Source: an uncultured Gammaproteobacteria bacterium (lineage in GTDB: Bacteria > Patescibacteriota > Microgenomatia > UBA8517). Taken from it: a DNA stretch of 59,060 nucleotides. The stretch spans positions 3,473 to 62,532 of the forward strand of contig CAYWFF010000002.1 of NCBI GenBank assembly GCA_964458085.1, given 5' to 3'. The notes under the pieces were generated by a model, which was given only the letters and a program-made list of their open reading frames with translations, was not told the origin of the DNA and made no database searches. Shown here in pieces: positions 6,625 through 43,165 of this stretch; the first letter of the stretch is position 1; each line of letters opens with the position of its first letter. Both the position numbers and the translations under genes were made by a program.

Positions 6625-6737
6625 TAAAGGCATTTACCTAAATTAGGAAAAGCCTTGTTGTGTGGCTTTAAAAGGTCGGGGAAAGCTGCTACTTGGTAGT
6701 GCGCCTGTTCTTTCGCTATAATGAAATATATCTGCCC

Positions 6738-13346: not shown

Positions 13347-13410
13347 ATCAATTGCTATTAAGTATAGCATTTGCCATAATGAAGATGTGCTTAAAAAGCA
13401 CTTTCCTGCC

Positions 13411-26704: not shown

Positions 26705-26719
26705 AAATTTTATAACATA

Positions 26720-27746: not shown

Positions 27747-29276
27747 GTGCTTGCCAAAATTACTTCAGGGGCAACAGTGGGTTTAAACGCGACGCTTATT
27801 GACGTCGAAGTGGATATTGCCAATCAAGGGCTTCCTTCCTTTACGATAGTTGGGCTTCCGGATAAAGCAGTTGAAGAAAGCAAAGAGCGCGTTCGCTCCG
27901 CCATTAAAAATTCCGGAGCCGATTTTCCGATATGCCGCATTACCGTTAACTTAGCTCCTGCAGATTTGCCAAAAGGGGGTCCGGCATATGATTTGCCAAT
28001 TGCGCTTGGTATTTTAATTGCATCCGGCCAAATTGCTCCGGAAGTACATAAGTCTCTCTTTTTCGGTGAATTGTCACTAGACGGAAGTTTAAGGCATACA
28101 AACGGTATTCTGCCTATGGCTAATCTTTGTAAAGAGTCAAAGTTTAAATATCTTTTTATACCAAAGGTTGATGAAAAAGAAGCAAGTGTAGTTTCTGAAG
28201 TTTCAATTTTTGCCGTAAGCTCACTTTTGGAACTTGTGAGACATTTGGCAAAAACAGTTGAAATTGAGGCAACTCCCCCGACACCATTGTCAGAAATATT
28301 AACTACAGCCAGTGCTGATTTTGATTTTGCTGAAGTGGTGGGGCAGGAGCAAGCTAAAAGGGCAATGGAGATTGCTGCAGCCGGTAGTCACAACATACTG
28401 CTTTCAGGAACTCCGGGTTCCGGTAAAACCATGCTTGCAAGGGCACTTCCGGGAATTTTACCCAAACTAACGGAGTCCGAGGCGTTAGAAATAACTAAAA
28501 TTTATTCCATTACCGGGAATTTATCGCCAGGGGAGTCGATTGTTACGACCCGCCCTTTCAGAAGTCCCCACCACACCACCAGTCGAATCGGTTTAATTGG
28601 CGGCGGTTCAAATCCCAGCCCGGGGGAAGTGTCTCTTGCCCACCGTGGAGTTTTGTTTTTGGATGAATTTCCCGAATTTCCCAGAAGTGTTTTGGAAAGT
28701 TTACGCCAACCCTTGGAGGATGGGAGAGTGACAATTTCAAGGGCAAAAGGAACAGTTACTTATCCTGCACAGTTTTTATTGATATCGGCCATGAATCCTT
28801 GTCCATGCGGCTATCACGGTGATATTAAACGAGCTTGTACTTGTATGCCTGGCCAGATCTCACGGTATCAAAAAAGAATTTCCGGGCCGCTCCTTGATCG
28901 AATTGATTTACATATATCATTGAGTTTATTAGAAACAGAAAAACTGGTTAATTCAAAATTAAAATCAGAAAGCTCAAAATCAATTCAAGAAAGAGTACAA
29001 AAAGCCAGAGATATTCAAATTAAACGATTTAAAGGTTCAAAGTTCAAATCAAATAGTGAAATGAGTTCGAAGGCAGTAAAAGAATTTTGCTCACTAACTC
29101 CAGAATGTACAACTCTGATGATAAGCGCTACAGCCTCAATGAATCTAACTGCAAGGTCATATCATAAGGTTTTAAAGGTGGCGAGAACAATCGCAGATTT
29201 AGCGGGGGATAAAGACATAACTACTAGCCATTTGGCAGAGGCGCTTCAATACAGACCTCAAGAAGAAGAGTTCTAA
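27747..29276 (+). CDS. comM: Mg-chelatase-like AAA+ ATPase YifB/ComM (competence-associated helicase family)
   Basis: GTG start. N-terminal Lon-like ChlI domain (VEVDIANQGLPSFTIVGLPD), Walker A GTPGSGKT, Walker B VLFLDEF and a Mg_chelatase C-terminal domain. Confidence 0.92.
   Translation: MLAKITSGATVGLNATLIDVEVDIANQGLPSFTIVGLPDKAVEESKERVRSAIKNSGADFPICRITVNLAPADLPKGGPAYDLPIALGILIASGQIAPEVHKSLFFGELSLDGSLRHTNGILPMANLCKESKFKYLFIPKVDEKEASVVSEVSIFAVSSLLELVRHLAKTVEIEATPPTPLSEILTTASADFDFAEVVGQEQAKRAMEIAAAGSHNILLSGTPGSGKTMLARALPGILPKLTESEALEITKIYSITGNLSPGESIVTTRPFRSPHHTTSRIGLIGGGSNPSPGEVSLAHRGVLFLDEFPEFPRSVLESLRQPLEDGRVTISRAKGTVTYPAQFLLISAMNPCPCGYHGDIKRACTCMPGQISRYQKRISGPLLDRIDLHISLSLLETEKLVNSKLKSESSKSIQERVQKARDIQIKRFKGSKFKSNSEMSSKAVKEFCSLTPECTTLMISATASMNLTARSYHKVLKVARTIADLAGDKDITTSHLAEALQYRPQEEEF
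28900..29276 (+). repeat. Copy 1 of a 377-bp direct repeat (3' end of intact comM); putative att-containing segment
   Basis: Starts with gaattgat. In register with 35306-35682 and 42751-43127, with equal length and no indels. Confidence 0.85.
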
Positions 29277-29412
29277 TTTATACAAAGTAGATTTTTAAAT
29301 CTAAAATCTTAGGGATACCTTAAAACATTGTCATATTTAGTCGCCTATAGTAAATATTTCTTTACGATGATATAATAAAACCCTTGTTTCTTATATTGAA
29401 ACGTTAAAAGTT

Positions 29413-30033
29413 ATGAAAGTGAATGAAATAATAAAATTATTTTATGCAACACCTGGAGTTGTGAATCTCAGTGACAAAGATGATTTTGAACCCCAACCTG
29501 GAGTATATGCCTCAGTTTATATAAATTTAAAGACACCTCTTTACTTTCCGAAACTGCGTAAAAAGTTAGCTAAGCTACTGTCTGTCCACGTAGATAATAA
29601 TGCTGATTATATATGTGGAATAGAAAGCGGTGGATCATATTATGCCTCAGCAGTTGGTGATATAGCTGATAAAAAAATTTTACTTTTCAGAAAGGAGAAA
29701 AAGCAATATAACATAAAAAATAATTTTGTCGGGAACTTACCGCAAAAAGGAGATTCGGTGGTTATTGTTGATGATGTTATCTCCAGCGGTAATACAATAT
29801 CTAAAGCTGTAGAGAGTTTGAGAGAATTGGGGTGCAGGGTAAAAGCAGTTATGCTTTTTAGTTATGGTTGGGACGAGCAAATTGCTAAAAATTTAGATAT
29901 TGAAATAAAAGTTCTATCTACGGCGGAGGAACTTATTGAGTATGGACTTTCAATAAAAAGAATGTCTTTACACAATTCAAAAATAATAAGAGATTTTGTT
30001 AAAAGAGAAGAAAACCGTTTAGCTAAACTTTAA
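29413..30033 (+). CDS. Type I phosphoribosyltransferase, orotate-PRTase-like
   Basis: PRPP-binding loop VVIVDDVISSGNT preceded by FRKEKKQYN...G, with OPRT-like architecture. Confidence 0.75.
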   Translation: MKVNEIIKLFYATPGVVNLSDKDDFEPQPGVYASVYINLKTPLYFPKLRKKLAKLLSVHVDNNADYICGIESGGSYYASAVGDIADKKILLFRKEKKQYNIKNNFVGNLPQKGDSVVIVDDVISSGNTISKAVESLRELGCRVKAVMLFSYGWDEQIAKNLDIEIKVLSTAEELIEYGLSIKRMSLHNSKIIRDFVKREENRLAKL

Positions 30034-30034
30034 G

Positions 30035-30655
30035 ATGTTGGAAAGAATCATCAAACCATGTTTAGAATATGCCTTTGAAGGAATCGATGGAGGTGGTAAA
30101 ACTTCAAGTATTACCTTCCTAAAAGAACATTATCAAGCCCAAGGGCTCGAAGTAGTTGTTTTGTCTGGAATTAGTAAAACTCCATTCGGAATGGCGATAC
30201 GGAGAAATATTACTAAATTAAATAGCATGGGTGTAAACGGGATGAGATTCTTTAAAGAGGATATAAGACGATCGTATGAAAGTGTTAACGGCCATGGAGA
30301 CGTGGCAGATTTAATCTTTTGGGATAGACATATTTACTCGATGGCTGCTGCCAATAGCGAAGGTTGCAACCTGGCATTAATTAGAGAAACGAAACCACAA
30401 GTTAGTGAACCGTCAAAAGTTTTTCTGTTGGATGTTTCACCATCTATTGCTTGGCAACGAGAAACCAAAGCACAAAAGGGAGATCATCCTTTAACTCCGG
30501 TGTGGTTGGAGGAGAAGTGTGTACGCTACCATGAATTAGTTGACAAAGAACCAAATAGGTTTATCACAATTGATGCTTCCCAGCCACCCGATGATGTTTT
30601 TCAGCAGTTATTAGATATAATAAATGAGGACTTAAAAAAAGTAGGTAAGTTATAA
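30035..30655 (+). CDS. Thymidylate-kinase-family nucleoside monophosphate kinase
   Basis: P-loop FEGIDGGGKTS and a DRH (DRY/F-like) motif. Length 206 aa. Confidence 0.65.
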   Translation: MLERIIKPCLEYAFEGIDGGGKTSSITFLKEHYQAQGLEVVVLSGISKTPFGMAIRRNITKLNSMGVNGMRFFKEDIRRSYESVNGHGDVADLIFWDRHIYSMAAANSEGCNLALIRETKPQVSEPSKVFLLDVSPSIAWQRETKAQKGDHPLTPVWLEEKCVRYHELVDKEPNRFITIDASQPPDDVFQQLLDIINEDLKKVGKL

Positions 30656-30657
30656 AT

Positions 30658-31275
30658 ATGAAAATCATTCTTGCTTCAACATCGCCTAGAAGAATTGAAA
30701 TGTTGAATTGGCTGGCTATCACTTTTGAATCGGTAAGTCCTGAATTGGATGAAACTAAGATTCGTTATACTGACCCTATGAAGCTTACCCAGAAACTATC
30801 TGAGGCTAAAGCAATAGCAGTAGCCGATAAGTATAAAGATGCAATAATTATCGGTTCTGACGCAGTAGTTTCATTCGAGGGGGGGATAATTGAGAAACCA
30901 AAAGACATTGATGATCAAAGAAGAATGCTATATTTACAGAGAGGGAAACCTGCAATAGTAGTTACTTCGGTATGTTTAGTTAACACTAAAACAAATGAAA
31001 CTGTGGTAAAGACGAAAGAAACTGAATATACAATGGCTAATGTTACCGATGAACAAATAGAAAATTATATAAAAACGGGAGTTGGTTTAAGCAGAGCGGG
31101 AGGTTATGGCCAACAGGATGAAAACGGGATGTTTATCGGAACTGAGTTTGACTGTTATCCCAATAGTATCGGCTTCCCTATTTGCTTAGTTAAAGAAATG
31201 CTTGAAGATATGGGTGTAAAAATTAATGTAGATATTAAGAGTGTAGTTAAAGAAAAAACCGGTAAACTTTGCTAG
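30658..31275 (+). CDS. maf: Maf-family nucleoside triphosphate pyrophosphatase
   Basis: N-terminus IILASTSPRR and GSD...GKP...GAYGIQ-like GGYGQQD. Confidence 0.88.
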   Translation: MKIILASTSPRRIEMLNWLAITFESVSPELDETKIRYTDPMKLTQKLSEAKAIAVADKYKDAIIIGSDAVVSFEGGIIEKPKDIDDQRRMLYLQRGKPAIVVTSVCLVNTKTNETVVKTKETEYTMANVTDEQIENYIKTGVGLSRAGGYGQQDENGMFIGTEFDCYPNSIGFPICLVKEMLEDMGVKINVDIKSVVKEKTGKLC

Positions 31276-31303
31276 CTACCTGTCCTTCAATAATTTTCAT
31301 AAT

Positions 31304-32170
31304 ATGAGTCAAGAGTTATTGGTTTGTGGAAATATCGCCCGCGATGTAATTTTTGGGAATGAGAAGCGTGGCGGTTCGGCTCCTGCAATAGCAATTAACG
31401 CGGGAAGATTAGGTGTTTCTTCAGGTTTACTCTCTGTCGTCGGTAAAGATATATTCAGCCAGGAGTATCTTCATTTTTTGAGAGCCAACAATATTAATAT
31501 AGATATGGTTGAAAAAAGTTTAGAAGAACTGCCGGAGTGCCGGGTTTTTACAAATTCAGCCTCAGCAGTTGAAGTAAAATGGATTGATAATGGTTGCCAT
31601 GAAGCAATGGAAAATATGCAGGTTAGTTTAAACGCAGCGCTTAATTATTCAGTGGTTCACCTTGTCAGCTGTCCTCCCGGACTGGCAAGAAAATTATCAG
31701 AAATAGGCATAACTAACCTTTCGTATGAACCAGGGCCATACATACACGAAGACCCTGCTTACCTCGATTTTGCCGTTATAGACAGAAGTAAAATGCTGTT
31801 TTTAAATGAAGAAGAATATCAATCAGCCTTAAAAATATCAGGGTTAAGATCGCCAAGAGATTTTATTCACGATAGTAACCGGATTTTAATAGTTACTAAA
31901 GGTGCTAATGGTTCTGAGTTATATGTTGATACTGCTAATGGTCTGAAAAGCGAGCACATAGAAGCTGTTAAACCTGAAGGTAATATTATTGACACTACTG
32001 GAGCAGGAGATTCCTATAAAGCAGGTTTCTTTGCTGGTTATATAAGAGGTAGGTCGCTTTCGGAATGTGCTTTAATTGGCTCGTATATGGGCGCAGCGTG
32101 TATTACACAAGAAGGTGGTATTTTACATCCAGGTGCGGTTGCAAGAATTAAAGTTGAATACGGATTGTAA
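31304..32170 (+). CDS. PfkB-family sugar/nucleoside kinase
   Basis: C-terminal signature DTTGAGDSYKAGF and N-terminal GG dipeptide region. Confidence 0.85.
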   Translation: MSQELLVCGNIARDVIFGNEKRGGSAPAIAINAGRLGVSSGLLSVVGKDIFSQEYLHFLRANNINIDMVEKSLEELPECRVFTNSASAVEVKWIDNGCHEAMENMQVSLNAALNYSVVHLVSCPPGLARKLSEIGITNLSYEPGPYIHEDPAYLDFAVIDRSKMLFLNEEEYQSALKISGLRSPRDFIHDSNRILIVTKGANGSELYVDTANGLKSEHIEAVKPEGNIIDTTGAGDSYKAGFFAGYIRGRSLSECALIGSYMGAACITQEGGILHPGAVARIKVEYGL

Positions 32171-32262
32171 CTTTATTGTTGCGTTTACTATTGATTTTTA
32201 AAAGCACCGTAGTATACTTGTTCCTATAGTTTAATAATTGTTGTTGTTGTTTATCTGTGAAT

Positions 32263-33249
32263 ATGAAGAAAATATTAGGTGTTATCATCATTATTGTTAT
32301 CGCCTTTGTAGCATTTTTTGTATTAAAAAATAAAAATGTTGCTAAAGTAAGGACTTCAACTCAAACGGAAAAAGTATCACTTCGGTTAAAATGGCTCGAC
32401 CAGGCACAGTTCTCTGGTTTTTATCTTGCAAAGAGTAAAGGTTTATATAAAGAAAAAGGGTTGGATGTAACTATTAACCCGGGCGGTCCTGAAGTTTCAC
32501 CGGTGCAGATGGTCGTTTCTAAGGTTGATAATTTTGGAATTACTGGTGCCGACCAGATAATTTTGGCAAGAGAAAAAGGTTTACCAATTGTTGCTCTAGC
32601 AGTAATTTATAAAGATACTCCTGTTGCCATAGGTTCTTTGAAAAAGACCAATATTACTAAACCGCAGGACCTTCAAGGAAAGAAAGTCGGATTGATATAC
32701 GGAAGGGATGAAGAAACAATCTACCGGGCACTTCTGGTAAAGGAAAAAGTTGACCCGAAAAGTATAAATGAGGTTGCTCTTCTCTCTGGATTGTCGCAAC
32801 TTACTACCGGAGCTATTGATGCACAAATTCTATATGAAATTAACGAACCGATTTTACTTGAACAACAAGGTTTTGAAGTGAACCTGATTAAACCTAGAGA
32901 CTACGATATTAATTTTTATGCCGATGTTCTTTTCACTACTGAAGATATGATAAAGGAACATCCTCAGGAAGTAAGGAGCTTCGTCAAAGCAAGTATCGAA
33001 GGATGGAAATCAGTTTTTAGTAATCAGGAAGAAGCAATAAACGAAGTGGTGAATGTCAGCAGCTCTTTAGACAGAACTCATCAAACTAAATTCCTTGAAC
33101 TTAGTAAACCTTTAATTACAGGTAAAGGAGAAATCGGTTATTCCGATAAAAAGGTATGGGAAGATATTCAAACGACTCTTTTAAGCCAGAAACTACTTAA
33201 AAACTCTATCGAGATTGACAAAGTATTCACCAACGACTTCTTGAAATAA
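32263..33249 (+). CDS. ABC transporter substrate-binding protein, NMT1/THI5-like (NitT/TauT family)
   Basis: Signal/TM anchor followed by LRLKWLDQAQFSGFYLAKSKGLYKEKGLDV, typical of NMT1/THI5-like SBPs. GTG at 32257 is an alternative start. Confidence 0.8.
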   Translation: MKKILGVIIIIVIAFVAFFVLKNKNVAKVRTSTQTEKVSLRLKWLDQAQFSGFYLAKSKGLYKEKGLDVTINPGGPEVSPVQMVVSKVDNFGITGADQIILAREKGLPIVALAVIYKDTPVAIGSLKKTNITKPQDLQGKKVGLIYGRDEETIYRALLVKEKVDPKSINEVALLSGLSQLTTGAIDAQILYEINEPILLEQQGFEVNLIKPRDYDINFYADVLFTTEDMIKEHPQEVRSFVKASIEGWKSVFSNQEEAINEVVNVSSSLDRTHQTKFLELSKPLITGKGEIGYSDKKVWEDIQTTLLSQKLLKNSIEIDKVFTNDFLK

Positions 33250-34004
33250 TGAGCCTCATTCAAGTTAACAAGCTTGAGAAAAGTTACAGCAATAGCGGAG
33301 TTCTTGCTGTTAAGAACCTCTCTTTTAATATCGACGAAGGGGATTTTGTTTCTATTGTTGGTCCTTTTGGTTGTGGTAAAACGACTGTTTTACATTTAAT
33401 TGGTGGAATCAAGGATTCGTATAAAGGAGAGATAGATATAGCTGGTGACTCGCCGATTCAAGCTAGGATGAAAAGAAAAATCGGATTTTGTTTCCAAAAA
33501 TCTAACTTGCTTCCATGGTTAAATGTTATAGACAATGTGTTACTTCCTCAAAAAATTGCTAATGTCAAAGTAGATAGAAGCAGAGCAGTTAAACTTTTAA
33601 AAATGGTTGGTTTAGAAAAGTATCGATTTATGAAACCTTATAATCTCTCGGGTGGAATGCAGCAGTTAGTCTCGATCACCCGCGCACTCATATTAGATCC
33701 AAAAATTTTATTATTGGATGAACCCCTCTCTTCAATCGATGAAATCAATAGATTTAAAATGCATCTTAAGCTATTGGAAATTCATAAAAAAACAAGAAAA
33801 ACAACTGTTATGATAACTCATTCAATTAATGAAGCAGTGTTATTATCAAATAAAGTTATTATACTAACTCCCCGACCTGCTAGGGTTAAAAAGATAATCG
33901 GAATTAATTTATCTGCTCGAGATAGTAAGACCCTATTTTCAAAGAAGTTTGTTAACTATACCAGAACAATAAGAAAGGAGTTGATTAATGACAAGAATAA
34001 TTAG
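33249..34004 (+). CDS. ABC transporter ATP-binding protein (NitT/TauT family)
   Basis: Walker A GPFGCGKTT, signature LSGGMQQ and Walker B ILLLDEP. Confidence 0.9.
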   Translation: MSLIQVNKLEKSYSNSGVLAVKNLSFNIDEGDFVSIVGPFGCGKTTVLHLIGGIKDSYKGEIDIAGDSPIQARMKRKIGFCFQKSNLLPWLNVIDNVLLPQKIANVKVDRSRAVKLLKMVGLEKYRFMKPYNLSGGMQQLVSITRALILDPKILLLDEPLSSIDEINRFKMHLKLLEIHKKTRKTTVMITHSINEAVLLSNKVIILTPRPARVKKIIGINLSARDSKTLFSKKFVNYTRTIRKELINDKNN

Positions 34005-34734
34005 AAGATTTCTACCTTTTTTTGTATTTATTATTTTATGGTATGCTACTGTCGAAGTTTTCAAAATTCCACCATATGTTTTACCAAAACCTTTAGTTGT
34101 TTTCGAATCGTTAATTTTAAATGGTTCAACAATACTTTCAAATACTGTGATCACACTCCGTGAGGCTTTTATTGGTTTTTTTATTGCTAACTTAGTAAGT
34201 ATAACAATTGCTCTGGGAATTGCTTTCAATAAAAATATGGAAAATACAATTATGCCCTTTGCGATTACTTTAAAAACTATACCGATATTAGCGATAACTC
34301 CGCTTTTAGTGGTTTGGTTTGGGCCAGGAGAATATTCAAAAATTGCTACAGCTGCATTAATTTGTTTTTTCCCGTCATTAGTAAATGTCCTCAGAGGAGT
34401 AAAGTCACTTGATAGAGATTTAACTGAATTTTTCAAGGCTTATGCTGCAAATAAACTACAACTAATAAAGATGTTAATTATTCCCAGCATTCTACCTTAT
34501 TTGTTTGCAGCTCTTAAAGTTTCCAGCTCACTTGCGGTTATCGGTGCTTTAGTTGGTGAATTTATTGGGGCAAATAAAGGTTTAGGATTTTTAATAATTT
34601 CAAACTACTATACTCTAAATACCCCTTATGTATTTGCATCTATTATTGTTTCGAGTTTTGTCGGTATTGTTTTTTATTATGTAATTCATTTTTTTGAAAA
34701 AAGAATTATAACCTGGACTGCAACAATTGACTAA
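33988..34734 (+). CDS. ABC transporter permease (NitT/TauT family, BPD_transp_1)
   Basis: Six TM segments. Overlaps the ATPase gene, suggesting coupling. Confidence 0.85.
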   Translation: MTRIIRRFLPFFVFIILWYATVEVFKIPPYVLPKPLVVFESLILNGSTILSNTVITLREAFIGFFIANLVSITIALGIAFNKNMENTIMPFAITLKTIPILAITPLLVVWFGPGEYSKIATAALICFFPSLVNVLRGVKSLDRDLTEFFKAYAANKLQLIKMLIIPSILPYLFAALKVSSSLAVIGALVGEFIGANKGLGFLIISNYYTLNTPYVFASIIVSSFVGIVFYYVIHFFEKRIITWTATID

Positions 34735-35275
34735 TTCTATGAAAGAAATAGAGATTTATCATATGTTACCAAGGACTAAGCAATTGTTAGAAGACGATAT
34801 ATTAAGGAGAAGGGCAGAATTATCTGATATTTCACAACAAGGTGCTGAAATTTGGGAAGGAGATCAGTGGCATAGTACAACTTACCGTGAGCAGCAACGT
34901 AGGAGAGAACTGGCAATTAGACTTTTGCAATTAATAGATCAAAAAAGTGGGAAGATAGATGTGCTTAATAAACCCAGACAGAATAACCAGATTGAATTGG
35001 GACATATGGCTAAAGTAATGTTGTTGGATGATCCTGATGTTTTGGAAGTAGGTATTCCCTACTCGCTTATTCATGTTTTAAGTAGTGAAGATGTCTTATA
35101 TCTAGGTCAATTGTTCGACAATATAAGAGAAATGGTTGTTTCCCAAGAGTCTCCGATTGGAAATGCCCTGCTAGGTAGAGGACGAAATGAAATAGCTACC
35201 TATCTTCAGGTAAATAGGCTAAAAATTCTCGGGGACAAGGATGCTATTAAAACGTCATATCTTTTTGATGGGTAG
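34727..35275 (+). CDS. GreA/GreB-family-like factor
   Basis: N-terminal coiled coil with EGDQWHSTTYREQQRR (cf. GDLSENAEY) and C-terminal ...SQESPIGNALLGRGRNE (cf. SPIGKALLGKKVGD). Divergent from the canonical family. Confidence 0.5.
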   Translation: MTNSMKEIEIYHMLPRTKQLLEDDILRRRAELSDISQQGAEIWEGDQWHSTTYREQQRRRELAIRLLQLIDQKSGKIDVLNKPRQNNQIELGHMAKVMLLDDPDVLEVGIPYSLIHVLSSEDVLYLGQLFDNIREMVVSQESPIGNALLGRGRNEIATYLQVNRLKILGDKDAIKTSYLFDG

Positions 35276-35305
35276 TTTTATTAAGTAAACAACTTTCTGA
35301 TAAAG

Positions 35306-35682
35306 GAACTGATTAACACATATCATTGCGTATGTTGGAAAGTGAAAAGCTGGTTAATAACAATCAAACAGCTGAAAGCTCTAAAGTCATACAGGAAAGA
35401 GTTCAGAAAGCAAGAAATATTCAGATTAAGCGATTTAATGGGACTAAATTTAAATCAAATAGTGAAATGAGTTCAAAAGCTGTTAAACAGTTTTGTTCGC
35501 TAACTCCTGATTGTGCTTCTCTTATGATCAGTGCAACAGCTTCAATGAATTTAACTGGCAGGTCGTATCACAAAGTCCTAAAAGTATCACGTACTATTGC
35601 AGATCTGGAAGGAGAAAAGGATATTTTAGTAAAACATCTTGCTGAAGCGCTTCAGTACAGGCCAACAGAGGACGTATTTTAG
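35306..35682 (+). pseudogene. comM/yifB 3'-end remnant (copy 2 of the 377-bp repeat)
   Basis: Translation TD*HISLRMLESEKLVN...LAEALQYRPTEDVF matches 96 of 124 positions of the intact gene's C-terminus (hand count). In-frame TAA at the third codon; the 5' 1.15 kb of the gene is absent. Confidence 0.85.
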
Positions 35683-35698
35683 ATACACATACCCATAG

Positions 35699-35727
35699 TT
35701 GTTTATTTGGTTTCATTTTTATATACT
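35699..35727 (+). promoter_or_regulatory. Candidate promoter TTGTTT-N17-TATACT for the island B plus-strand operon
   Basis: -35 at 35699-35704 and -10 at 35722-35727, 20 nt upstream of the ATG at 35748. Confidence 0.35.
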
Positions 35728-35747
35728 TCTTCATATTAAAAGAATGC

Positions 35748-36971
35748 ATGACTCAGGAACTTAAAGGCAAAGAAACAACTGACTATTCACTTTATCCAAT
35801 TTACAAAGCTGCTTTTTTCAGAAATAGTGGCATGATCTCTTTAAGATTGGAGGAAAAGAAAGAAACCGTTTGTTTCAAAGAAAGGTTGTCGAATCAGGAT
35901 GAAGCACAGCCTGATGGAAATCTGTTTGCTTTTGTAACAAATCCCGTAAATCCAGAGGCATCAAAGTTATTAGAGCAACCCGATAACCTAACTAAGTATT
36001 TTAAAGAGGAAGGTTTTGAGGTACATAGACCCATGCCTGTTGTTAGTAAATCAGGAAGCACTTTATTTATTTCTGCGGGTGTGCAAAACCTGGAAAGTGT
36101 TTATATAGGTGAAGGTCCTATTTCTAATAGAAGTATTTATGTCGCGCAACCTGTTTTCAGGACCCAATATGTAGGTCAGGCAGCTGAAGGAATCTCTACT
36201 AGCTTTGTAAATGTGTGTTTGGAATCGATAAATCAAGGTGCTGAAACTCATTTCCAAAACTTGCAAAAAGTATTTACTTTATTTGCTAATCTTGGTCTAA
36301 AAAGGGAAGATTTTTTATTTGAGGTAGATGAGAAAGAATCTAGTTGGGGTGATCGCACACATTTGCAAAAACGAGTTAAAATATTTTTTCAAGGTTTGGA
36401 GATTGGTGATGCAATTTTTATCGAAGGCTTTCCTCAAAATACTAGAAAAAGTTTAGAGATCAGTGATATCGGATTGGGTTTTGAAAGACTTAAATGGGTA
36501 TTAAAGGGAGGGTCTTACTGGGATGTACATGAGGAGGCTTCTTCTCATAAACATAGGCTTAGCACAGTTGACTCTACCAAAACTTTGGCCCTTTTGGCTG
36601 GTTCAGATGTTGTCCCTCATTACAAAGCTCATGGTTACAGATTTAGACTACTTTCAAAAAAGGTAGTTGAAGAGCTTGCTTCGGGAGAAAGCAGAGAGGG
36701 TTTGTCCGACTTATTAGGAAAATACCATGATTATTGGAATAAATGGACTGAACTTCCTGTCTCAAAAGGCGTTTCTCTGAAACGTGTTCTTGATGAAAAT
36801 ACCAGAAATTTCAATGTCGAATTGATTAACAGGCTGAAAAACTTTTATGATAGTGTAGACGTTGATATAAATAGGCCTACGGATCAAGTAGTACAGCTAT
36901 TAAAAGGTACACCTGCTGATATAAGTAAAATTCAGGATATAATTAATGAAATGGGAGGAGTGTTGTTATGA
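35748..36971 (+). CDS. Stand-alone class IIc (AlaRS-type) aminoacyl-tRNA synthetase catalytic-core paralog
   Basis: STLFISAGVQNLESVYIG (cf. AlaRS LLFTNAGMNQFK..FLG), LEIGDAIFIEGF (cf. EIWNLVFMQF) and motif 3 ISDIGLGFERLKWVLKGG (cf. IDTGMGLERLAAVLQG). At 407 aa it has no room for tRNA-recognition, editing or C-Ala domains. Confidence 0.6.
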   Translation: MTQELKGKETTDYSLYPIYKAAFFRNSGMISLRLEEKKETVCFKERLSNQDEAQPDGNLFAFVTNPVNPEASKLLEQPDNLTKYFKEEGFEVHRPMPVVSKSGSTLFISAGVQNLESVYIGEGPISNRSIYVAQPVFRTQYVGQAAEGISTSFVNVCLESINQGAETHFQNLQKVFTLFANLGLKREDFLFEVDEKESSWGDRTHLQKRVKIFFQGLEIGDAIFIEGFPQNTRKSLEISDIGLGFERLKWVLKGGSYWDVHEEASSHKHRLSTVDSTKTLALLAGSDVVPHYKAHGYRFRLLSKKVVEELASGESREGLSDLLGKYHDYWNKWTELPVSKGVSLKRVLDENTRNFNVELINRLKNFYDSVDVDINRPTDQVVQLLKGTPADISKIQDIINEMGGVLL

Positions 36972-37660
36972 ACTGTAAAATGTTTCTATCGGGTGGGGGT
37001 TCTGAAAAAGACACTTTTGATTTTGATAAAAAGTTTATTAACTCGCTTAAATTCAGAAAAATCCTCTATATCCCAATTGCTATGGAAAGGGACGCTCAAG
37101 GATACGAAAGCTGCTACGACTGGATAACTTCTTCACTTACCCAATTTGATGATAAATTCATTGAAATATCGATGTGTGTAGATTTGCATGAGATTTCGCT
37201 TTCGAAGTTAAATAATTTTGCAGCGGTTTACTTTGGCGGTGGCAATACATATAGACTTCTGGATAAAATCTACTCTTCTGGCTTTGATAAACTACTATTG
37301 AATTTTATTGAAAATGGAGGAATTTATTATGGTGGAAGTGCAGGAGCAATTGTTATAGGCAAAAGTATTGAAACTGTTCTGGAAGAAAAGGATAAATTTT
37401 ATTCTTTTAGTAAGGGTTTGAAGCTAATTGGAGATTTTTCTTTAGTCTGTCATTTTAATAAACATACTGAGGATAAAATAAAGAATATGGATAAATTTTT
37501 GGATAAACATAATACTCCCGTTATTGCCCTGCCTGAAGATTCGGGACTAATTGTAGATAGGGATAAAATCCAAATGTTCGGGAAGTCAGAATCAATGATT
37601 TTTTACCCCAACGGTACGCGAAGAAAGTTCATACAAGGAGAATCAATTAATATAAAGTAG
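36968..37660 (+). CDS. Peptidase S51 family (dipeptidase E/cyanophycinase-like)
   Basis: GGGNTYRLL and nucleophile motif YGGSAGAIV. 4-nt overlap with the upstream gene. Confidence 0.75.
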   Translation: MNCKMFLSGGGSEKDTFDFDKKFINSLKFRKILYIPIAMERDAQGYESCYDWITSSLTQFDDKFIEISMCVDLHEISLSKLNNFAAVYFGGGNTYRLLDKIYSSGFDKLLLNFIENGGIYYGGSAGAIVIGKSIETVLEEKDKFYSFSKGLKLIGDFSLVCHFNKHTEDKIKNMDKFLDKHNTPVIALPEDSGLIVDRDKIQMFGKSESMIFYPNGTRRKFIQGESINIK

Positions 37661-37662
37661 TT

Positions 37663-39321
37663 ATGAAGGTAAAACTTAATATTAATCCAAACAAAAGTAA
37701 TCTTTACCTAGGGATAGGTTCGAATCACGACTTTTCCGGATGTTTAGTTAAGAATGGAAAAATATTCGAAGCTATCGAAGCAGAAAGAATTAGTAAATTA
37801 AAACATTCTCTGGATGCATTTAATCCCTTTAGCTCAGTATTAAAATATTTATTTAATACAAAAGAGGTAAATATTGCCGCATTAGCCTCCTGTGACACAC
37901 TAAGCCCGAAATATTATTACAAATACAAAGACAAAATCAAGCTTTATAATCACCATCTTTGTCATGCCGCAACAGTTTTTTACACTTCCCCTTTTCAAGA
38001 ATCTGCAGTGTTTGTTGCAGATGGTTTAGGAAGTATGTGGGAATTAAACGACGGAGGCTATAAATATGAAACGTACTCTTATTATCAAGGGAATAATAAT
38101 AAATTAAAACTTATGAGCAAGCAATTCGGCGTAGTCGATAACTCTCTGGATGAAACACACTTACATCAAATATATATTCCCAACTCAATGGGGCTTTTTT
38201 ATAACTACATTACTAAAATAGTTGGATTTAATTTTTTGGACGACGGAAAAACGATGGGTCTTTCAGCATACGGCAATCCGGATGCTTTTTATAAAGAATT
38301 CCTCAAATTCTTCAGTTTCAAGAAAGATGGAATTGTAGACAATAATTTTGCTAAGAAAGAGGTAGATTATTATTCAGACATGGTAAGCTCATGCGCGGAT
38401 GCAAAAAAACAATTCAAAATAAAAGCAGATATTGCTGCCTCCGCACAAAAGGTTTTTGAAGAATGTTACTTTTATTGTTTAAATTATCTCTACCAAGAAA
38501 CTAAAAATGAAAATCTTTGTCTAAGCGGAGGGATTGTACTAAATAGTGTGGCGAATGGCAAAATCAAAAAGATGACTTCTTTTAAAAAGATACACTACTT
38601 TCCCGGCTGTGGGGACGACTCTATAGCTATTGGATCTGCATTTTTAGCTTATCTGGAGGATCATCGGGAAAATTCTAAAAGGTTAGTTAACTGGCAAACT
38701 CCTTTCTTAGGTAAAGATTATACAGATGACATCATCGAGTCGAAGTTAAGGAAGTATAAAGTAAAATTTAAAAAATCTGAAGATATATATAAAACGTCAG
38801 CAAACTTACTTGCCGAAGGAAAGATTGTTGGCTGGTTCACAGGAAAATCTGAATTTGGCCCTCGGGCTTTAGGTCATAGAAGCATAGTGGTTGATCCTCG
38901 AAACCCGAAAATAAAAGATATTCTTAATGACCGTGTTAAACACCGGGAATTTTTCAGGCCGTTTGCCCCAGCTATATTAGAAGAATACACAGACGAATAT
39001 TTTGATGTTATCAATTCTCCATCTCCTTACATGCTCGAGGTATTTCCCATTAAAAAAGATAAACAATCTTTAATTCCAGCGGTTGTACATAACGATGGAA
39101 CCGGACGTATACAAACGGTCGGAAGAAAAAACACCGAGTTTTATAAACTTATTAATGAATTTTTTAAGTTAACAGGTGTACCTGTAATATTAAACACATC
39201 ATTTAATATTAATAAGATGCCCATTGTTGAAACCCCGGAAGATGCAATTAACTGTTTCTTAAACACGGAGATTGATGTGCTTTCTATTGGAAACTATATA
39301 TGTACAAAAAACTCTGGCTAG
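37663..39321 (+). CDS. Carbamoyltransferase (NodU/CmcH family)
   Basis: Metal-binding NHHLCHA, ...LCLSGGIVLNSVANG..., EFGPRALGHRSI and NTSFN motifs. Length 552 aa. Confidence 0.85.
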   Translation: MKVKLNINPNKSNLYLGIGSNHDFSGCLVKNGKIFEAIEAERISKLKHSLDAFNPFSSVLKYLFNTKEVNIAALASCDTLSPKYYYKYKDKIKLYNHHLCHAATVFYTSPFQESAVFVADGLGSMWELNDGGYKYETYSYYQGNNNKLKLMSKQFGVVDNSLDETHLHQIYIPNSMGLFYNYITKIVGFNFLDDGKTMGLSAYGNPDAFYKEFLKFFSFKKDGIVDNNFAKKEVDYYSDMVSSCADAKKQFKIKADIAASAQKVFEECYFYCLNYLYQETKNENLCLSGGIVLNSVANGKIKKMTSFKKIHYFPGCGDDSIAIGSAFLAYLEDHRENSKRLVNWQTPFLGKDYTDDIIESKLRKYKVKFKKSEDIYKTSANLLAEGKIVGWFTGKSEFGPRALGHRSIVVDPRNPKIKDILNDRVKHREFFRPFAPAILEEYTDEYFDVINSPSPYMLEVFPIKKDKQSLIPAVVHNDGTGRIQTVGRKNTEFYKLINEFFKLTGVPVILNTSFNINKMPIVETPEDAINCFLNTEIDVLSIGNYICTKNSG

Positions 39322-40265
39322 CCGTAAAGATAATTAACGGTGTTTTTGTAAGTAATAGCAGACACGGCATCGGATGATAATTTCAGGAGGTCAACTAGAA
39401 CGTTTACCTCATCAAAATAACTATTTTCGCTTCTTATTTTGCCGTTTGAATTGATTGACGTTGTCCATGGTTCATCAGTTCCCCAAATAAGATGATCTTT
39501 CAAAACACCAAAGTATCTATTTAACGAGGCCGCGGGATTTTGAAAATCGATTAAATTGGGAAAATTAACTATTTCACTTTTTTCCTCGACTGCTCTACAA
39601 ATCTGCAAGAATGGCGCACAATCTATAAATATATTTTGATGCCTAGGTACTTCCTTAATTATTTCCTGATCAAGTCCTCCCAAATGAGCAATACAAACAC
39701 GAAGTTCCGGTAAAGTCTCGCCCAATTCAATAATATTTCGTGGGTGTGAAAGTCGATCCAATCCAGCATGTATTAAGATTGGAAGGTTCCGCTCAACTGC
39801 GAAGTCACCGATTCCGCTTTTTGCAATTTCAAGCGCCCGGCAACCACTAGCTAACGAGTGGAATTTTAGACCAAATATTTGCCGTCTGTCATGTAAATTT
39901 CCCAGGAAAGCCAATTGTTCAGGCACTTTTGTGGTCGGATCCACACAAGCAAAAGGGATAACGGCCTCAATTCGCTTCGAATCGTTTACAAGAACGAAAT
40001 TCTCCTGCTGGTACGGAAAATCTTGTTGGCCACTGCGTTCTTTTCTACCTTCGGTTACCAAAATTCTCGCATTAAAATAAGACGAGCCTGGAAACGGGGT
40101 CGTAATTGCTCGATTTACACCTGCAAATTTTACTTTTAAAGCAAGATCTTCAACCGCCTGGGAGTGCGGAATATTACCCATGAAGAAATTATATGTATCT
40201 GTACCACCAGAATGGGTATGAGAGTCAATTACGTTGTTTATCCCCAACTCTTTTAATGATGTCAT
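39318..40265 (-). CDS. Metal-dependent amidohydrolase (TIM-barrel, Amidohydro_2-like)
   Basis: N-terminal VIDSHTHSG and later HAG/HLGG metal-ligand motifs. Confidence 0.7.
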   Translation of the reverse strand: MTSLKELGINNVIDSHTHSGGTDTYNFFMGNIPHSQAVEDLALKVKFAGVNRAITTPFPGSSYFNARILVTEGRKERSGQQDFPYQQENFVLVNDSKRIEAVIPFACVDPTTKVPEQLAFLGNLHDRRQIFGLKFHSLASGCRALEIAKSGIGDFAVERNLPILIHAGLDRLSHPRNIIELGETLPELRVCIAHLGGLDQEIIKEVPRHQNIFIDCAPFLQICRAVEEKSEIVNFPNLIDFQNPAASLNRYFGVLKDHLIWGTDEPWTTSINSNGKIRSENSYFDEVNVLVDLLKLSSDAVSAITYKNTVNYLYG

Positions 40266-40272
40266 ATGTTCA

Positions 40273-41517
40273 TTAAAAATTAACGTTATTCCCGTTTATA
40301 AACTCGTCCGTCACTGAACTTATATTTTTTAGACCATCTTTAATGATTTTCGTAATAATACTTTTGTTAGCATCCGAAATGACCCTAACTTTCCAAGGAT
40401 CCTTTAATGGCGCGCCGTTTTGCGAAACCATCTCTATGATATTCGCCTTACCTGTTTTCTGAAAAATTTCTTTGGAAAGTTTTTTTGTTAAAACTGCATA
40501 GATAAATCCAGAATAATATCTCGGATTTTTTCCATTTGTGCCCTCCAGACTCATAGGACGGTTTGATGTTATTAATCCGTTTGTTCTATTGCCTCTACCT
40601 GAAACCCCAATATCGCCAGACAAAGAAGATCCAGTAACAGTTAGGTAAACATTCATTTTCTCATAATCATCCTTGGTGTTTAGTGATAGGTTAATATTAT
40701 TTCCGGGCAATGAGGCTGTAAATTTTTTGTAAATAAGTCTTCCTATTTGATTTAAATTTTTCTTGTAAATTTCTAAAGACTCTACGTGCTTGGCTATCTG
40801 TGGTATACACATTGTAATTGAAATATTTTTTTTATCCCTAATGGCCATAATCTTTATATCAGTACCGAGCCAGGGATATCTGTGTTTCGTTGACTTCTGA
40901 TTTAAAAAGTTTTCAACAGTAAGGACTGTAGATTCTAAATTCGAATAAGGAGCATATGCTACGCAATACGAAGTATCATTCGCCACCAGTTTTTCATATC
41001 CTCTAACCTCTTTATTGTTTTTTGGGGCAAACATACTAGCAATTGCACCCTTACTGGATAGTATTGTTCCCGGTCCGGGGTAAGAAGTTAAATTGTTTTG
41101 GATTAAGTAATCCCGAGAATATTTTAAATCCGGAAACATCATATTGAAGTATTCTCTAATTGTTGACGTTGTAATTTTATCAATCGGAATTATTTTTTCC
41201 TTATAGGAACCAGAGGCTCTCCCCGCAACTATAATTTTGATTGGTTCGACAAATCGCCCCTTTCCATAACTAACCTCGGTCTTACCGCCAATAACCATTA
41301 CTTTGTCTATTTGATGATGAAGAATTAGATTGTCACAATTTTTAAGAGTATACCTTGAGTATGCCAAACTTATATTCGCAGCTATTGCATCTGCTATTGT
41401 ATCTGGGTGACCCAACCCCTTCCTTTCAATAGTTTCAAAATCTTTATTAAAGGGTTTACTATTATAAATAGTTATCTCCATTTTTTTAATTGCATCAGGT
41501 CCATATATATAATCCAT
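40273..41517 (-). CDS. Archaeal-type S-adenosylmethionine synthetase (methionine adenosyltransferase)
   Basis: ERKGLGHPDTIAD, ANDTSYCVAYAP, YLTVTGSSLSGDIGVSGRGNRTNGLIT and SLEGTNGKNP are collinear with the remembered Methanocaldococcus MAT sequence. Confidence 0.85.
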   Translation of the reverse strand: MDYIYGPDAIKKMEITIYNSKPFNKDFETIERKGLGHPDTIADAIAANISLAYSRYTLKNCDNLILHHQIDKVMVIGGKTEVSYGKGRFVEPIKIIVAGRASGSYKEKIIPIDKITTSTIREYFNMMFPDLKYSRDYLIQNNLTSYPGPGTILSSKGAIASMFAPKNNKEVRGYEKLVANDTSYCVAYAPYSNLESTVLTVENFLNQKSTKHRYPWLGTDIKIMAIRDKKNISITMCIPQIAKHVESLEIYKKNLNQIGRLIYKKFTASLPGNNINLSLNTKDDYEKMNVYLTVTGSSLSGDIGVSGRGNRTNGLITSNRPMSLEGTNGKNPRYYSGFIYAVLTKKLSKEIFQKTGKANIIEMVSQNGAPLKDPWKVRVISDANKSIITKIIKDGLKNISSVTDEFINGNNVNF

Positions 41518-41522
41518 ATTTA

Positions 41523-42587
41523 TTAAATTTGTTGGTTTAAAGTGTCCGAAAATCTATCATTTATTTGCCTGTCTGTATAATTACAATCAACACATTTTAC
41601 TTCCCTAAGCATTGCCCGTCTTATTGACTTACTATTTCTCCAGACATTTTCAAAAGCATTTGCACTATCATCGTTTAAATCAACGGCCATATTTCCCATA
41701 AGATAACCATTAACTTCCCTCGGTTGTGCACCCAAGCAACAACTATATAAATCACCATAAGGATTAATTGCTGATTTGAAATATGGAATAACACATGGAC
41801 GGCCGATCTTAAATCTATCTAACTGTGTTCTAATTTCTACAGCATCACCCCAGTATGCCTTCACTAATGATAGTGATTTTTCTACACCGTCTCTCTGCGT
41901 GTCAGGAATGTATTTTCCATATATGTCATGCTTGAAAATTACTTTATCAACTCCAACCTCACCCAGCAAAGTATCCGCAAATTGAACTATCTCTCCTTGA
42001 TTATGCGGGTTTGTTATAAATGATGCACCGACTAACAAATTAGTATTTTGTCTTTTCTTTTCTTCCACGACACCTCTAATGTTAACTAAAGTAGTACCAA
42101 GTAATGACGGATCAACATTCCGGATTAAAGAATATGTATCAGGATTAACTGTATCCATGCTGAATCGAATTTCAACGCAATTTACAATATCCGAAAGAAG
42201 ATCGTTTGGTATAAAATTGCCATTTGTCACAATTCTGGTGTTAAGGTTTCTGAGTTGAGCCTCTTTAATAAATGTTCTGATGTTTCTTGATAAAAAAGGT
42301 TCACCACCTCCAGAAATCGAATACTCTCTAATTTTTAGTTCTGCTAAATTAGCAATAAGATTTCTTATTTGGTTTTCAGAGAGATATCTTGATGTATCCC
42401 TATCTTTCCCAAAACCTTTCCCTCCATGAAAGCAATAGTTACAACCCTGATTACAAATATCGGTTGGATGAACTTCAACACTAATAGGATATGGATCATA
42501 ACCTTTAATAACTTCTCCAAATACCGCCTCGGTTTGACTTAGCAAGATAGCTTCCTGTTTCATAGTTTCAGGAATTATATCACTCAT
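41523..42587 (-). CDS. Radical SAM enzyme with C-terminal auxiliary-cluster (SPASM/twitch-like) region
   Basis: CNQGCNYC (CX3CX2C), SGGGEP, and C-terminal cysteines (CVIPYF...YSCC...CVDC). Confidence 0.88.
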   Translation of the reverse strand: MSDIIPETMKQEAILLSQTEAVFGEVIKGYDPYPISVEVHPTDICNQGCNYCFHGGKGFGKDRDTSRYLSENQIRNLIANLAELKIREYSISGGGEPFLSRNIRTFIKEAQLRNLNTRIVTNGNFIPNDLLSDIVNCVEIRFSMDTVNPDTYSLIRNVDPSLLGTTLVNIRGVVEEKKRQNTNLLVGASFITNPHNQGEIVQFADTLLGEVGVDKVIFKHDIYGKYIPDTQRDGVEKSLSLVKAYWGDAVEIRTQLDRFKIGRPCVIPYFKSAINPYGDLYSCCLGAQPREVNGYLMGNMAVDLNDDSANAFENVWRNSKSIRRAMLREVKCVDCNYTDRQINDRFSDTLNQQI

Positions 42588-42750
42588 ACTTCATTTTTTC
42601 CCTATATCACTAAAAAAAGAGAAAATTATAATTTCTATTTCTTTGTATATAGCTTTGGATACCCGACTATTCTCAAGTTTGCTTCTGGTGTCATCTCTTG
42701 AGCATTGCACCAAGGTTTCGTTTATATACATATTGTTGTGCTTCATAAAT

Positions 42751-43127
42751 GAACTGATATTCATATCAATGTCCCATCAGTTGAAACTCAAAAACTTATC
42801 AGTGAAAATTCCAAAGGAGAGCCTTCGCAACTCATTCAATTGAGGGTTCAAAAAGCAAGAAATATGCAAATAAAGCGTTTCAAAGAAAGTAAATTAAAAT
42901 CAAACAGTGAAATGTCTACAAAAGATGTCAATAATTTTTGTCCTCTGACAACGAACTGTAAACAAATGATGCTTTCCGCAGTTTCTGCGATGAATTTGTC
43001 TGCCCGTTCGTACTTTAAAGTAATTAAAGTGGCAAGGACTATTGCTGATTTGGCGGAAGTTAATGAAATAGCCCCTGAGCACATTGCAGAGTCACTTCAA
43101 TACCGCCATAAAGAAAAAGATATGTAA
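42751..43127 (+). pseudogene. comM/yifB 3'-end remnant (copy 3 of the 377-bp repeat; probably the displaced ancestral gene end)
   Basis: Translation TDIHINVPSVETQKLISEN...AESLQYRHKEKDM matches 71 of 124 positions of the intact C-terminus (hand count). An in-frame TGA lies immediately upstream. The track ORF at 42840 covers only its distal part. Confidence 0.8.
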
Positions 43128-43165
43128 AATTATTAAACCGGCTAAAGTTCCGATATACTGAAAGC

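Follow-up and report, generated by a model that had tools for sequence, protein, structure and literature searches.

Organization of the comM locus

The DNA analyzed here is a stretch of 59,060 nt from contig CAYWFF010000002.1 (GenBank assembly GCA_964458085.1), hereafter called the window, in which the competence gene comM (also known as yifB) is followed by two tandem blocks of unrelated genes, islands A and B, each of which ends at a further copy of the comM 3' end (Table 1). comM itself (27747-29276) is an intact open reading frame (ORF) of 509 aa with full-length ChlI, Mg_chelatase and Mg_chelatase_C domains according to Pfam. A first-pass annotation, made from the letters of the sequence alone, had described three in-register copies of its 3' end, equal in length and without indels. 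Ungapped alignment (spans 28880-29290, 35286-35696 and 42731-43141) and a repeat finder both reproduced this arrangement, with all copies on the same strand, and within 27-44.5 kb the repeat finder returned the comM 3' repeat as the sole long direct-repeat family.

Similarity between the copies starts at GAA(T/C)TGAT, the octamer being gaattgat in copy 1 and gaactgat in copies 2 and 3 as had been reported, and stops at the stop codon. The repeat length of 377 is not divisible by three; the in-frame modules occupy 28902-29273, 35308-35679 and 42753-43124. Copy 1 is identical to copy 2 at 274 of 377 nucleotide positions and to copy 3 at 238 of 377, and the in-frame translations gave amino-acid identities of 96/124 and 71/124, exactly the values previously counted by hand (BLASTP E = 2e-51 for copy 1 against copy 3). 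Copies 2 and 3 are full length and free of indels, and both match Pfam Mg_chelatase_C (E = 7.5e-32 and 7.9e-28, respectively). An in-frame TAA is present as the third codon of copy 2 and an in-frame TGA directly before copy 3, as the earlier reading had it. Copy 3 keeps every invariant residue of alignment A2, and the closest relatives of copy 2 are comM ends and remnants in other Microgenomates. The ComM and copy-2 proteins of the window were found on one contig only.

Independent history of the 3' module

The C-terminal module of ComM occurs in two types among 119 ComM proteins of Candidatus Woesebacteria. Type II (…H[IV]DVPSVETQKL…SYFK[VI]IK…) is carried by at least 83 of these and type I (…HISLSLLETEKLV…SYHKV[LI]KV…) by nine; copies 1 and 2 of the window belong to type I, while copy 3 is type II-like. 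The C-terminal part of a usual ComM is less conserved than the N-terminal part, by 14.7±4.5 points. The window ComM (P0001) is 77.7% identical to P0002 in the N-terminal part and 89.5% in the C-terminal part, and for P0005 and P0076 the corresponding values are 98.7% and 77.1%. At the nucleotide level, the comM genes of the window and of locus L081, a relative treated below, are 69% identical over nt 1-1155, 85% over the module and 91-97% in the first 90 nt of the module. The maximum-likelihood change point of divergence between these two genes lies at comM nt 1153-1169, which is the 5' boundary of the repeat (mismatch 0.31 before and 0.154 after it, ΔlnL ~19), and similarity vanishes right past the comM stop codon. 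These comparisons show the module to be a unit exchanged independently of the rest of comM.

The first-pass annotation had also held that the original gene end is pushed to the most distal position. This agrees with copy 3 being of the dominant, native type II-like kind, and with copies 1 and 2 being of the rare type that is also found fused to comM beside a recombinase-bearing element. No relative of copy 3 is anomalously close, and the identities measured against its relatives are in line with the vertical baseline; overall identity is uninformative on its nativeness, copies 1 and 3 being equally distant (~60%) from type II ends. The G+C content at third codon positions (GC3) is island-like in copies 1 and 2 (0.25 and 0.27) and within the backbone range in copy 3 (0.306). 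Because copy 3 combines a type II-like sequence, no anomalously close relative and backbone-range GC3, we read it as the probable original chromosomal end, and the proximal copies as probably imported.

The comM-dtd hotspot in Candidatus Woesebacteria

The closest ComM proteins (73-81% identity) belong to Candidatus Woesebacteria, members of the Candidate Phyla Radiation (CPR). These close relatives were reached by exact-protein look-ups; comM scans of genomes and metagenomes gave mostly distant phyla among the matches listed. The repeats had been taken as the footprint of serial integration of elements that carry a surrogate comM 3' end, and the relatives, when searched for other cargo between comM ends, lend support to this: different cargo is bounded by the same in-register modules in L081, L082-84, L166, L172, L223, L224/L001 and L225. 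At L081, comM is followed by four unrelated genes (two Mur ligases among them), a full in-register module and dtd, and at L082-84 there are four modules and thus three stacked islands. In L172 and L223, dtd is preceded by 7-10 kb of NUDIX/Ham1/HD/kinase cargo in which module scraps occur. An 8-kb island and a 30-codon comM scrap precede a 343-aa gene and a PEGA gene in L224/L001, and comM is directly followed by a 343-aa-type gene and a PEGA gene in L173-176, which are thus the empty partner of the occupied L224/L001. L223 was initially considered as a near-isogenic partner of L001 and was rejected at only 81% identity; L224 is the proper one.

The proposed ancestral arrangement, comM directly followed by dtd, is nearly attained at L085, where only a methyltransferase (1.4 kb) separates the two genes, but a strictly empty comM-dtd junction was not found among the sampled relatives. 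The backbone after the hotspot is in any case shared: dtd, a 21x-aa gene, DUF4446, DUF3048 and SecD follow it in L081, L085, L223, L225 and L228, as the first four of these follow the array in the window. The comM remnants in relatives have variable starts, premature stops and frequent truncations, down to 13-96 codons in L001/L224, L223, L228, L166 and L082. A database search found 282 free-standing Mg_chelatase_C ORFs, mostly in Microgenomates, and many remnants are called as ORFs of 95-132 aa.

Some further features of these loci were recorded. A tyrosyl-tRNA synthetase gene lies inside the comM island at L001 8991-10250 and L224 18248-19507, immediately ahead of the 30-codon remnant of comM. 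The 'empty-site' genomes contain, past the 344-aa and PEGA genes, a degenerate piece of comM corresponding to ~aa 42-82 of the module (L173 13305-13427), which raises the possibility that these two genes are an old island in their own right. Beside comM remnants, L169 11010-11940 and L166 3498-4428 hold the same 931 bp of an rve_3 insertion sequence (IS) at 100% identity, and the assemblies break there. Joining L169 and L166 into one array was rejected, the 931-bp IS copy being all that they have in common, and the array of GCA_001792375.1 was thus not reconstructed.

Recombinases in the window and at the site in relatives

Neither island encodes a recombinase, in agreement with the earlier statement. 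Searches with Pfam, NCBIfam and PADLOC gave no match to integrase, transposase, excisionase or relaxase families in the 14 cargo ORFs, and these families had no match in 30 further ORFs of the window either. A tblastn search of the window with the tyrosine integrase and the large serine recombinase (LSR) of a related element likewise returned nothing, and a protein with the combination Resolvase, Recombinase and Zn_ribbon_recom is absent from the window and was seen only in related elements. The window is typical of the hotspot in this regard, with ~13/14 of the islands sampled without bias toward the LSR being cargo-only, i.e. lacking a recombinase.

Autonomous elements using the same att site do exist (L169-171, L228 and L225+L229), all of them in relatives and none in the window. 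In Woesebacteria GCA_001792375.1 (L169-171) the comM remnant is the right end of an element with an HTH_17 protein, a tyrosine integrase, a 562-aa LSR, a LexA-like repressor, a capsid fragment and a SMODS cyclase. The LSR has 12 homologues with 53-72% identity (family P0241-P0253), and the sampled members, three out of three, lie in elements that end at an in-register comM module (L169-171, L228, L225-227). The gene order at L228 is Prim-Pol, HTH_17, LSR, LexA-like repressor, SMODS and in-register module, followed by dtd, HhH-GPD, DUF4446, DUF3048 and SecD, with no tyrosine integrase. In L225-227, ~50-70 bp separate the end of the LSR gene from a complete in-register module of type II, and a P-type ATPase island and then dtd come next. 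A single contig of 19,550 bp, on which L229 and L225 overlap, yields a complete element of ~13.1 kb with a GC content of 0.365 (vs. 0.525 in the comM 5' part); here a type I end is fused to comM, the LSR gene is last in the element and a type II module is displaced. The tyrosine integrase with HTH_17 of L169 was tried as the integrase of the site and rejected, since it is absent from the L228 and L225 elements and the LSR is conserved.

The SMODS (cyclase of the type found in CBASS, cyclic-oligonucleotide-based anti-phage signaling systems) and LexA-like genes lie between the LSR and the att-side module at L169 8490-9920 and L228 12928-13917, a typical position for cargo.

Island junctions and the candidate crossover site

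The DNA immediately 5' of the three copies had been called unrelated. Broadly this holds, except that ~12 nt on the island side (gATAAAgGA / cATAAAtGA) are common to copies 2 and 3 and to island ends of other genomes. At the right end of island A a 22-mer spans the island-side half-site and the beginning of the module (Table 1), and the identical 22-mer in L081 adjoins unrelated cargo, a Mur ligase instead of the 182-aa ORF of the window; the right end of island B has a junction of the same motif class. For the 12 island-side nt of nine displaced modules, the mean pairwise identity is 0.512, compared to a null expectation of 0.267±0.025, and none of 5000 randomisations (0/5000) reached 0.512. 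The adjoining 12 nt further upstream show no more identity than the null (0.259). Island A of the window and the L081 island are alike at both ends, the left one being a copy-1-like module and the right one the 22-mer, and have no cargo in common.

The first four codons of the displaced modules include variants unfit for a working comM (ACT for Ile, TAA for Leu), and 3' of the His codon the modules follow type I or type II. This pattern suggests that the arm of the incoming element supplied the sequence as far as the His codon and that the crossover took place just 3' of it, at ~28911-28916. The stop codons in the displaced copies would then be explained without decay, because the first four codons derive from the incoming arm. 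Conservation on the island side amounts to ~12 nt plus four module codons; neither L081 nor L229/L225 has a shared attL/attR run of 6 bp or more. This would be compatible with LSR att sites, which are short (~40-50 bp), lack long identity between the partners and cross over at a central dinucleotide.

Readings of the junctions as dif/Xer-like or palindromic were looked at by eye and then dropped. A perfect, hairpin-forming palindrome, TAGATTTTTAAATCTA, is present at 29286-29301, 10 nt past the comM stop codon at the left end of island A. It was not flagged by the terminator scan because its stem is not G+C-rich; the promoter and terminator scans of the window were at chance level.

Serial integration and alternative explanations

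We interpret the window as two non-autonomous islands stacked by serial LSR-type integration at a comM 3' hotspot of Candidatus Woesebacteria, a reading to which we assign a probability of about 0.7. According to this model, the attP of the circular element would consist of an element-specific half-site (~12-24 nt) and a 375-nt replacement comM 3' end, and the LSR would recombine it with comM at the LLDR-IDxH codons. The replacement end would thereby be fused to comM, keeping the gene intact, and the prior end would be pushed behind the element. As the new fusion would re-create a comM-like target, a further element could enter at the same place, leaving newer elements proximal. For the window this predicts that island B entered first, displacing the native end (copy 3) and installing copy 2, and that island A came later, displacing copy 2 and installing copy 1, which would be the attL side and is now the working comM 3' end. 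The missing enzyme may be accounted for in two ways: the islands may be cargo-only cassettes moved in trans by the LSR and an HTH_17-type directionality factor of an autonomous relative, or derivatives that have lost these genes. The predicted junction of a circular island A is …CTTTCTGATAAAGGAACTGATTAACAC joined to ATATCATTGAGTTTATTAG…, and that of a circular island B is …GCTTCATAAATGAACTGATATTCAT joined to the copy-2 body.

Several points weigh against this interpretation. Of the three contexts that link the LSR to the site, two came to light because the LSR itself was the query, and within the 59-kb window there is no LSR, recombination directionality factor or other recombinase, the search having covered the window alone. 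The junctions of integrase-less islands (AAGGA/ACTGATTAACAC) differ from those of LSR-bearing elements (AACTA/AATGATAYGCAC), matching at 14/21 positions, and because of this difference in subtype another, unsampled recombinase could serve the islands of the window. Canonical LSRs recombine attP with attB and not attP with attL, for which reason stacking would require that the regenerated comM fusion act as an attB. Excision, circular forms and current mobility are only predictions of the model. Finally, homologous recombination is demonstrably active in comM: L224 (10001-11551) and L223 (5878-7407) are 100% identical from upstream to comM nt ~780, ~15% diverged to nt ~1200, ~40% diverged beyond and unrelated past the stop codon, and the downstream backbone differs as well (343-aa gene and PEGA in L224 vs. 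dtd in L223). This indicates a homologous-recombination tract that ends inside comM and swapped the whole downstream region.

Such recombination is central to the alternative raised in the first-pass annotation, in which the comM ends serve as homology arms in place of an integrase. The 375-nt modules would be portable homology into which transformed DNA, or circles formed by recombination between modules, insert via RecA, and the 5' boundary would be inherited by descent. The abundance of islands without a recombinase, the L223/L224 tract, and a host with a type IV pilus locus and an intact comM would all suit this explanation, and a linear module-cargo-module fragment could presumably enter a single module by double crossover. 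The alternative leaves unexplained, however, how the first duplication with such a boundary originated, why ~12 nt of non-comM sequence recur at each island right end beside unrelated cargo when the next 12 nt are random, and why the LSR family lies at the exact boundary in 3/3 cases. The sole observed tract, moreover, ends ~370 nt upstream of the module boundary and can make neither in-register duplications nor the non-comM motif, and is therefore not the source of the junctions. With the LSR at the site in all three contexts and the conserved junction motif beside unrelated cargo, we demote this alternative to an improbable one, although homologous recombination could help to spread existing arrays. 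The remaining non-mobile explanations, namely that the comM 3' end was duplicated in tandem long ago, that the copies are small Mg_chelatase_C genes functioning independently, or that the assembly is in error, might appeal to the 95-132-aa ORFs that gene callers place on many remnants and to the metagenomic origin of the assembly. A syntenic three-copy array is not shared among the relatives: the cargo between modules differs in every one of them, and given this and the empty/occupied pair an ancient shared duplication is ruled out. The remnants are not conserved small genes, considering their variable starts, premature stops and frequent truncation, and at 61-73% nucleotide identity the copies are too diverged for misassembly, so that this group of explanations is extremely unlikely.

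A different question is whether islands A and B, if they entered by LSR-type integration, are now immobile fossils, that is, decayed formerly autonomous elements from which the integration module was deleted. This is a sub-case of the integration model, alike in origin and different in present state. Decay of modules is visible at the other loci listed above, and the formation of cis-mobilizable elements (CIMEs) by deletion is established (PMC5704250). Both displaced modules of the window, in contrast, are full length and indel-free. Three islands with unrelated cargo carry one and the same junction subtype, distinct from that of LSR-bearing elements, which is not expected from independent deletions and hints at a self-propagating, trans-mobilized lineage of cargo-only islands. 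We therefore hold the fossil state to be somewhat unlikely.

Cargo, composition and flanking genes

Both islands are compositionally foreign when compared with 62 backbone windows by tetranucleotide distance and GC content (Table 1), a check that had been suggested along with the earlier reading, and GC content also drops from the 5' part of comM to copy 1. All NCBIfam matches of the cargo are under the curated cut-offs, and the labels in Table 1 are therefore generic. Judging by these family assignments, island A would combine nucleoside salvage with an ABC importer and island B would be a small biosynthetic cluster. The latter (35748-42587) is compact and of a kind unusual in CPR genomes; its gene content resembles that of an operon for the biosynthesis of a small molecule, possibly an aminoacyl- or nucleoside-derived one. 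No defence system was found in the cargo by PADLOC.

Table 1 Features of the comM locus in the window, and comM 3' fragments at loci of other phyla (positions refer to the window unless a locus is named)
Feature	Position	Strand	Details
Native 5' part of comM/yifB (ChlI and Mg_chelatase AAA+ domains), up to LLDR codons	27747-28899	+	Pfam; GC 0.452 vs. 0.342 in following module; 69% nt identity to L081 comM
Candidate crossover region, codons R384-I-D-L-H388	28899-28916	+	GAATTGATTTACAT; change point, codon variants of displaced copies
Copy 1: 375-nt comM 3' module plus 2 nt, in-frame fusion to comM	28900-29276	+	Type I; GC3 0.25
Island A cargo	29277-35297	+	Pfam/NCBIfam; tetranucleotide z = 6.9, GC z = -3.3
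Orotate-PRTase-like protein (island A)	29413	+	
dTMP-kinase-like protein (island A)	30035	+	
Maf (island A)	30658	+	
PfkB nucleoside/ribokinase-like protein (island A)	31304	+	
NMT1/SsuA-family binding protein, ABC ATPase, permease: ABC importer (island A)	32257-34734	+	
182-aa protein (island A)	34727	+	No family match
Island A right-end junction, 22-mer	35298-35319	+	TGATAAAGGAACTGATTAACAC; island-side half-site and first four module codons incl. in-frame TAA; identical at L081 16254-16275
Copy 2: displaced comM 3' module	35306-35682	+	Type I; TAA at codon 3, then 121 intact codons
Island B cargo	35683-42743	mixed	Pfam/NCBIfam; tetranucleotide z = 5.3, GC z = -3.2
AlaRS-catalytic-domain-like 407-aa protein (island B)	35748	+	
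PepE/S51 peptidase (island B)	36968	+	
NodU-type carbamoyltransferase (island B)	37663	+	
Amidohydro_2 protein (island B)	39318	-	
Archaeal-type SAM synthetase (island B)	40273	-	PF01941, E = 1.5e-95
Radical SAM/SPASM protein (island B)	41523	-	
Island B right-end junction	42744-42764	+	CATAAATGA/ACTGATATTCAT, incl. in-frame TGA; motif class as island A junction
Copy 3: most distal comM 3' module	42751-43127	+	Type II-like, INVPSVETQKLI…SYFKVIKV; GC3 0.306
dtd (D-Tyr-tRNA deacylase), first conserved backbone gene downstream	43166-43609	+	Pfam E = 4.4e-49
Prophage comM fragments (examples)	L178 9491-10354; L181 9887-10369; L184 3937-4617		
Non-CPR comM 3' duplications	L038 11150, 15898; L116 15619; L130 3382, 6761; L162 15259		

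More generally, the hotspot cargo is strikingly rich in nucleotide-handling enzymes, both in the window (29413-31275) and in the L166, L172, L223 and L082 islands; these include NUDIX, Ham1/ITPase, MazG, Maf, HD phosphohydrolases, dNMP-kinase-like proteins, PRTase and APH-type kinases. Such an enrichment may reflect either the salvage needs of auxotrophic hosts or conflict with phages.

The backbone upstream comprises type IV pilus genes, HDC, a 7TM histidine kinase, a phosphorylase and then comM, and downstream dtd is followed by the 21x-aa gene, DUF4446, DUF3048, SecDF, CCA-adding enzyme, RecJ and RelA/SpoT. The type IV pilus locus named in the first-pass annotation is present, with PilB (6693-8417), PilC (8419-9630), pilins and PilM/N (13387-14820). 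Between the phosphorylase and comM, on the minus strand (24410-27667), lie genes for a 764-aa dCache/HAMP/PAS histidine kinase and an SBP_bac_3 binding protein. This pair is absent from the otherwise syntenic upstream regions of L081, L082 and L085, and could represent a further insertion, this one 5' of comM.

Relation to known mobile elements

The closest analogues are the ccr-less pseudo staphylococcal cassette chromosome (ΨSCC) cassettes and the CIMEs, the best match being the SCC composite islands at rlmH. As with SCC (CcrAB/CcrC), the 3' end of a conserved gene is hit and the gene is left intact, units are stacked in tandem with direct repeats of the target site, recombinase-less units stand beside recombinase-bearing ones, and the cargo is diverse. 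The repeats of SCC are short integration-site sequences of ~15-18 bp, whereas here each event replaces a coding module of 375 nt, or 125 codons; comM takes the place of rlmH as the target, and the host belongs to the CPR. The LSR of the relatives, a single protein of ~560 aa, is probably of a different family from Ccr. Recombinase-less ΨSCC units occur in LSR-made composite islands at rlmH/orfX (10.1101/336396), and it has been shown experimentally that SCC transfer by natural transformation depends on Ccr and attB (PMC12570499). Such Ccr/attB-dependent transformation is a model for the acquisition of cassettes by a competence-proficient CPR cell.

CIMEs and the tandem accretion of islands derived from integrative and conjugative (ICE) or integrative and mobilizable (IME) elements have been described for the ICESt1 family (PMC5704250). 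CIMEs keep attL and attR, lack the genes for integration and transfer and are mobilizable with or by a functional neighbour. The same combination is seen in the window, where both att sites are kept, as full-length modules and the conserved right-end motif, and integration genes are absent. Unlike the islands described here, CIMEs are defined by conjugative elements with tyrosine integrases; no conjugation genes were seen here, the associated recombinase is of the serine type and the functional neighbour is absent from the window.

In the tycheposons and tRNA-linked islands of Prochlorococcus, serial integration pushes older elements distally (10.1101/2020.12.28.424599). Further likenesses are a streamlined host without conjugation, scattered partial copies of the target, island genes mostly outside functional elements and metabolic or defensive cargo, and the autonomous Woesebacteria relatives carry a replication module (Prim-Pol, L228) beside the integrase. 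Tycheposons differ in having mostly tyrosine recombinases, tRNA/tmRNA targets and short partial-tRNA repeats in place of a protein-coding module. An assignment to the tycheposons was rejected, as the tRNA scan of the window found none, the target is comM and the recombinase of the relatives is of the serine type. An integron array has an IntI tyrosine recombinase and attI at its head and attC hairpins between cassettes. The window has no tyrosine recombinase and its repeats are 375-nt coding modules, not attC, so that an integron cassette array was likewise discarded.

Elements that insert into comM are known from Aggregatibacter, Acinetobacter (AbaR/Tn7-like), Mannheimia, Francisella and Pseudomonas, where they disrupt the gene and have been argued to block transformation (PMC4774983). 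The target gene is alike, and those elements have an orthologous insertion site conserved across genera. While they disrupt comM, the Woesebacteria elements enter at aa 384/385 and repair it with a surrogate end. A Tn7-like insertion of the AbaR type was rejected for the window, with comM intact and no transposase or Tns families present.

comM 3' fragments were also observed outside the CPR. Prophage contigs of other phyla in IMG/VR (L177-L222) have fragments starting at ~aa 215, 301-307 and 345-350, often with an LSR within ~50-120 bp (examples in Table 1), and from these sequences comM seems to be a multi-site prophage target well beyond the CPR. Single-sequence scans of viral contigs with the LSR and copy 3 found nothing, and an alignment-based scan gave only comM fragments with other boundaries, from other phyla. 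Chloroflexota-type and other non-CPR loci have same-strand duplications of the comM 3' end downstream of comM, with boundaries at ~aa 355 and ~aa 372 ('YQKRISGP'; Table 1). The duplicate at L038 is identical at the nucleotide level over the stretch shown.

A limited literature search found no paper describing such comM-module islands. The points of difference from the known systems are the 125-codon coding module as an att arm, the site at aa 384/385, the CPR host and the dominance of cargo-only islands.

Significance for gene exchange in Patescibacteria

To our knowledge, CPR/Patescibacteria, with their tiny genomes, have no known conjugation and very few characterized mobile elements, and their exchange of metabolic genes is largely unexplained. 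Together with its relatives, the locus provides a concrete, recurrent exchange site, for which the target codons and a recombinase family can be named, along with a replication module carried by the autonomous members and numerous cargo-only islands rich in nucleotide-handling enzymes. These mobile elements target a competence gene and yet spare it, in contrast to the comM-disrupting elements of Proteobacteria. For the biology of LSRs, it is unusual that the P' arm of an attP should be a surrogate gene end of 125 codons, and equally unusual that a fusion may regenerate attB. A further-reaching proposal, which we regard as rather unlikely, is that in Woesebacteria, and perhaps more widely in the CPR, the comM 3' module and a ~24-nt half-site define a family of recombinase-less cassettes with common ends and freely exchangeable cargo, moved in trans by a dedicated LSR and acquired via DNA uptake. 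If true, this would amount to a cassette platform, integron-like or SCC-like, by which the targeted competence gene is repaired, and it could be a main route of metabolic gene exchange without conjugation.

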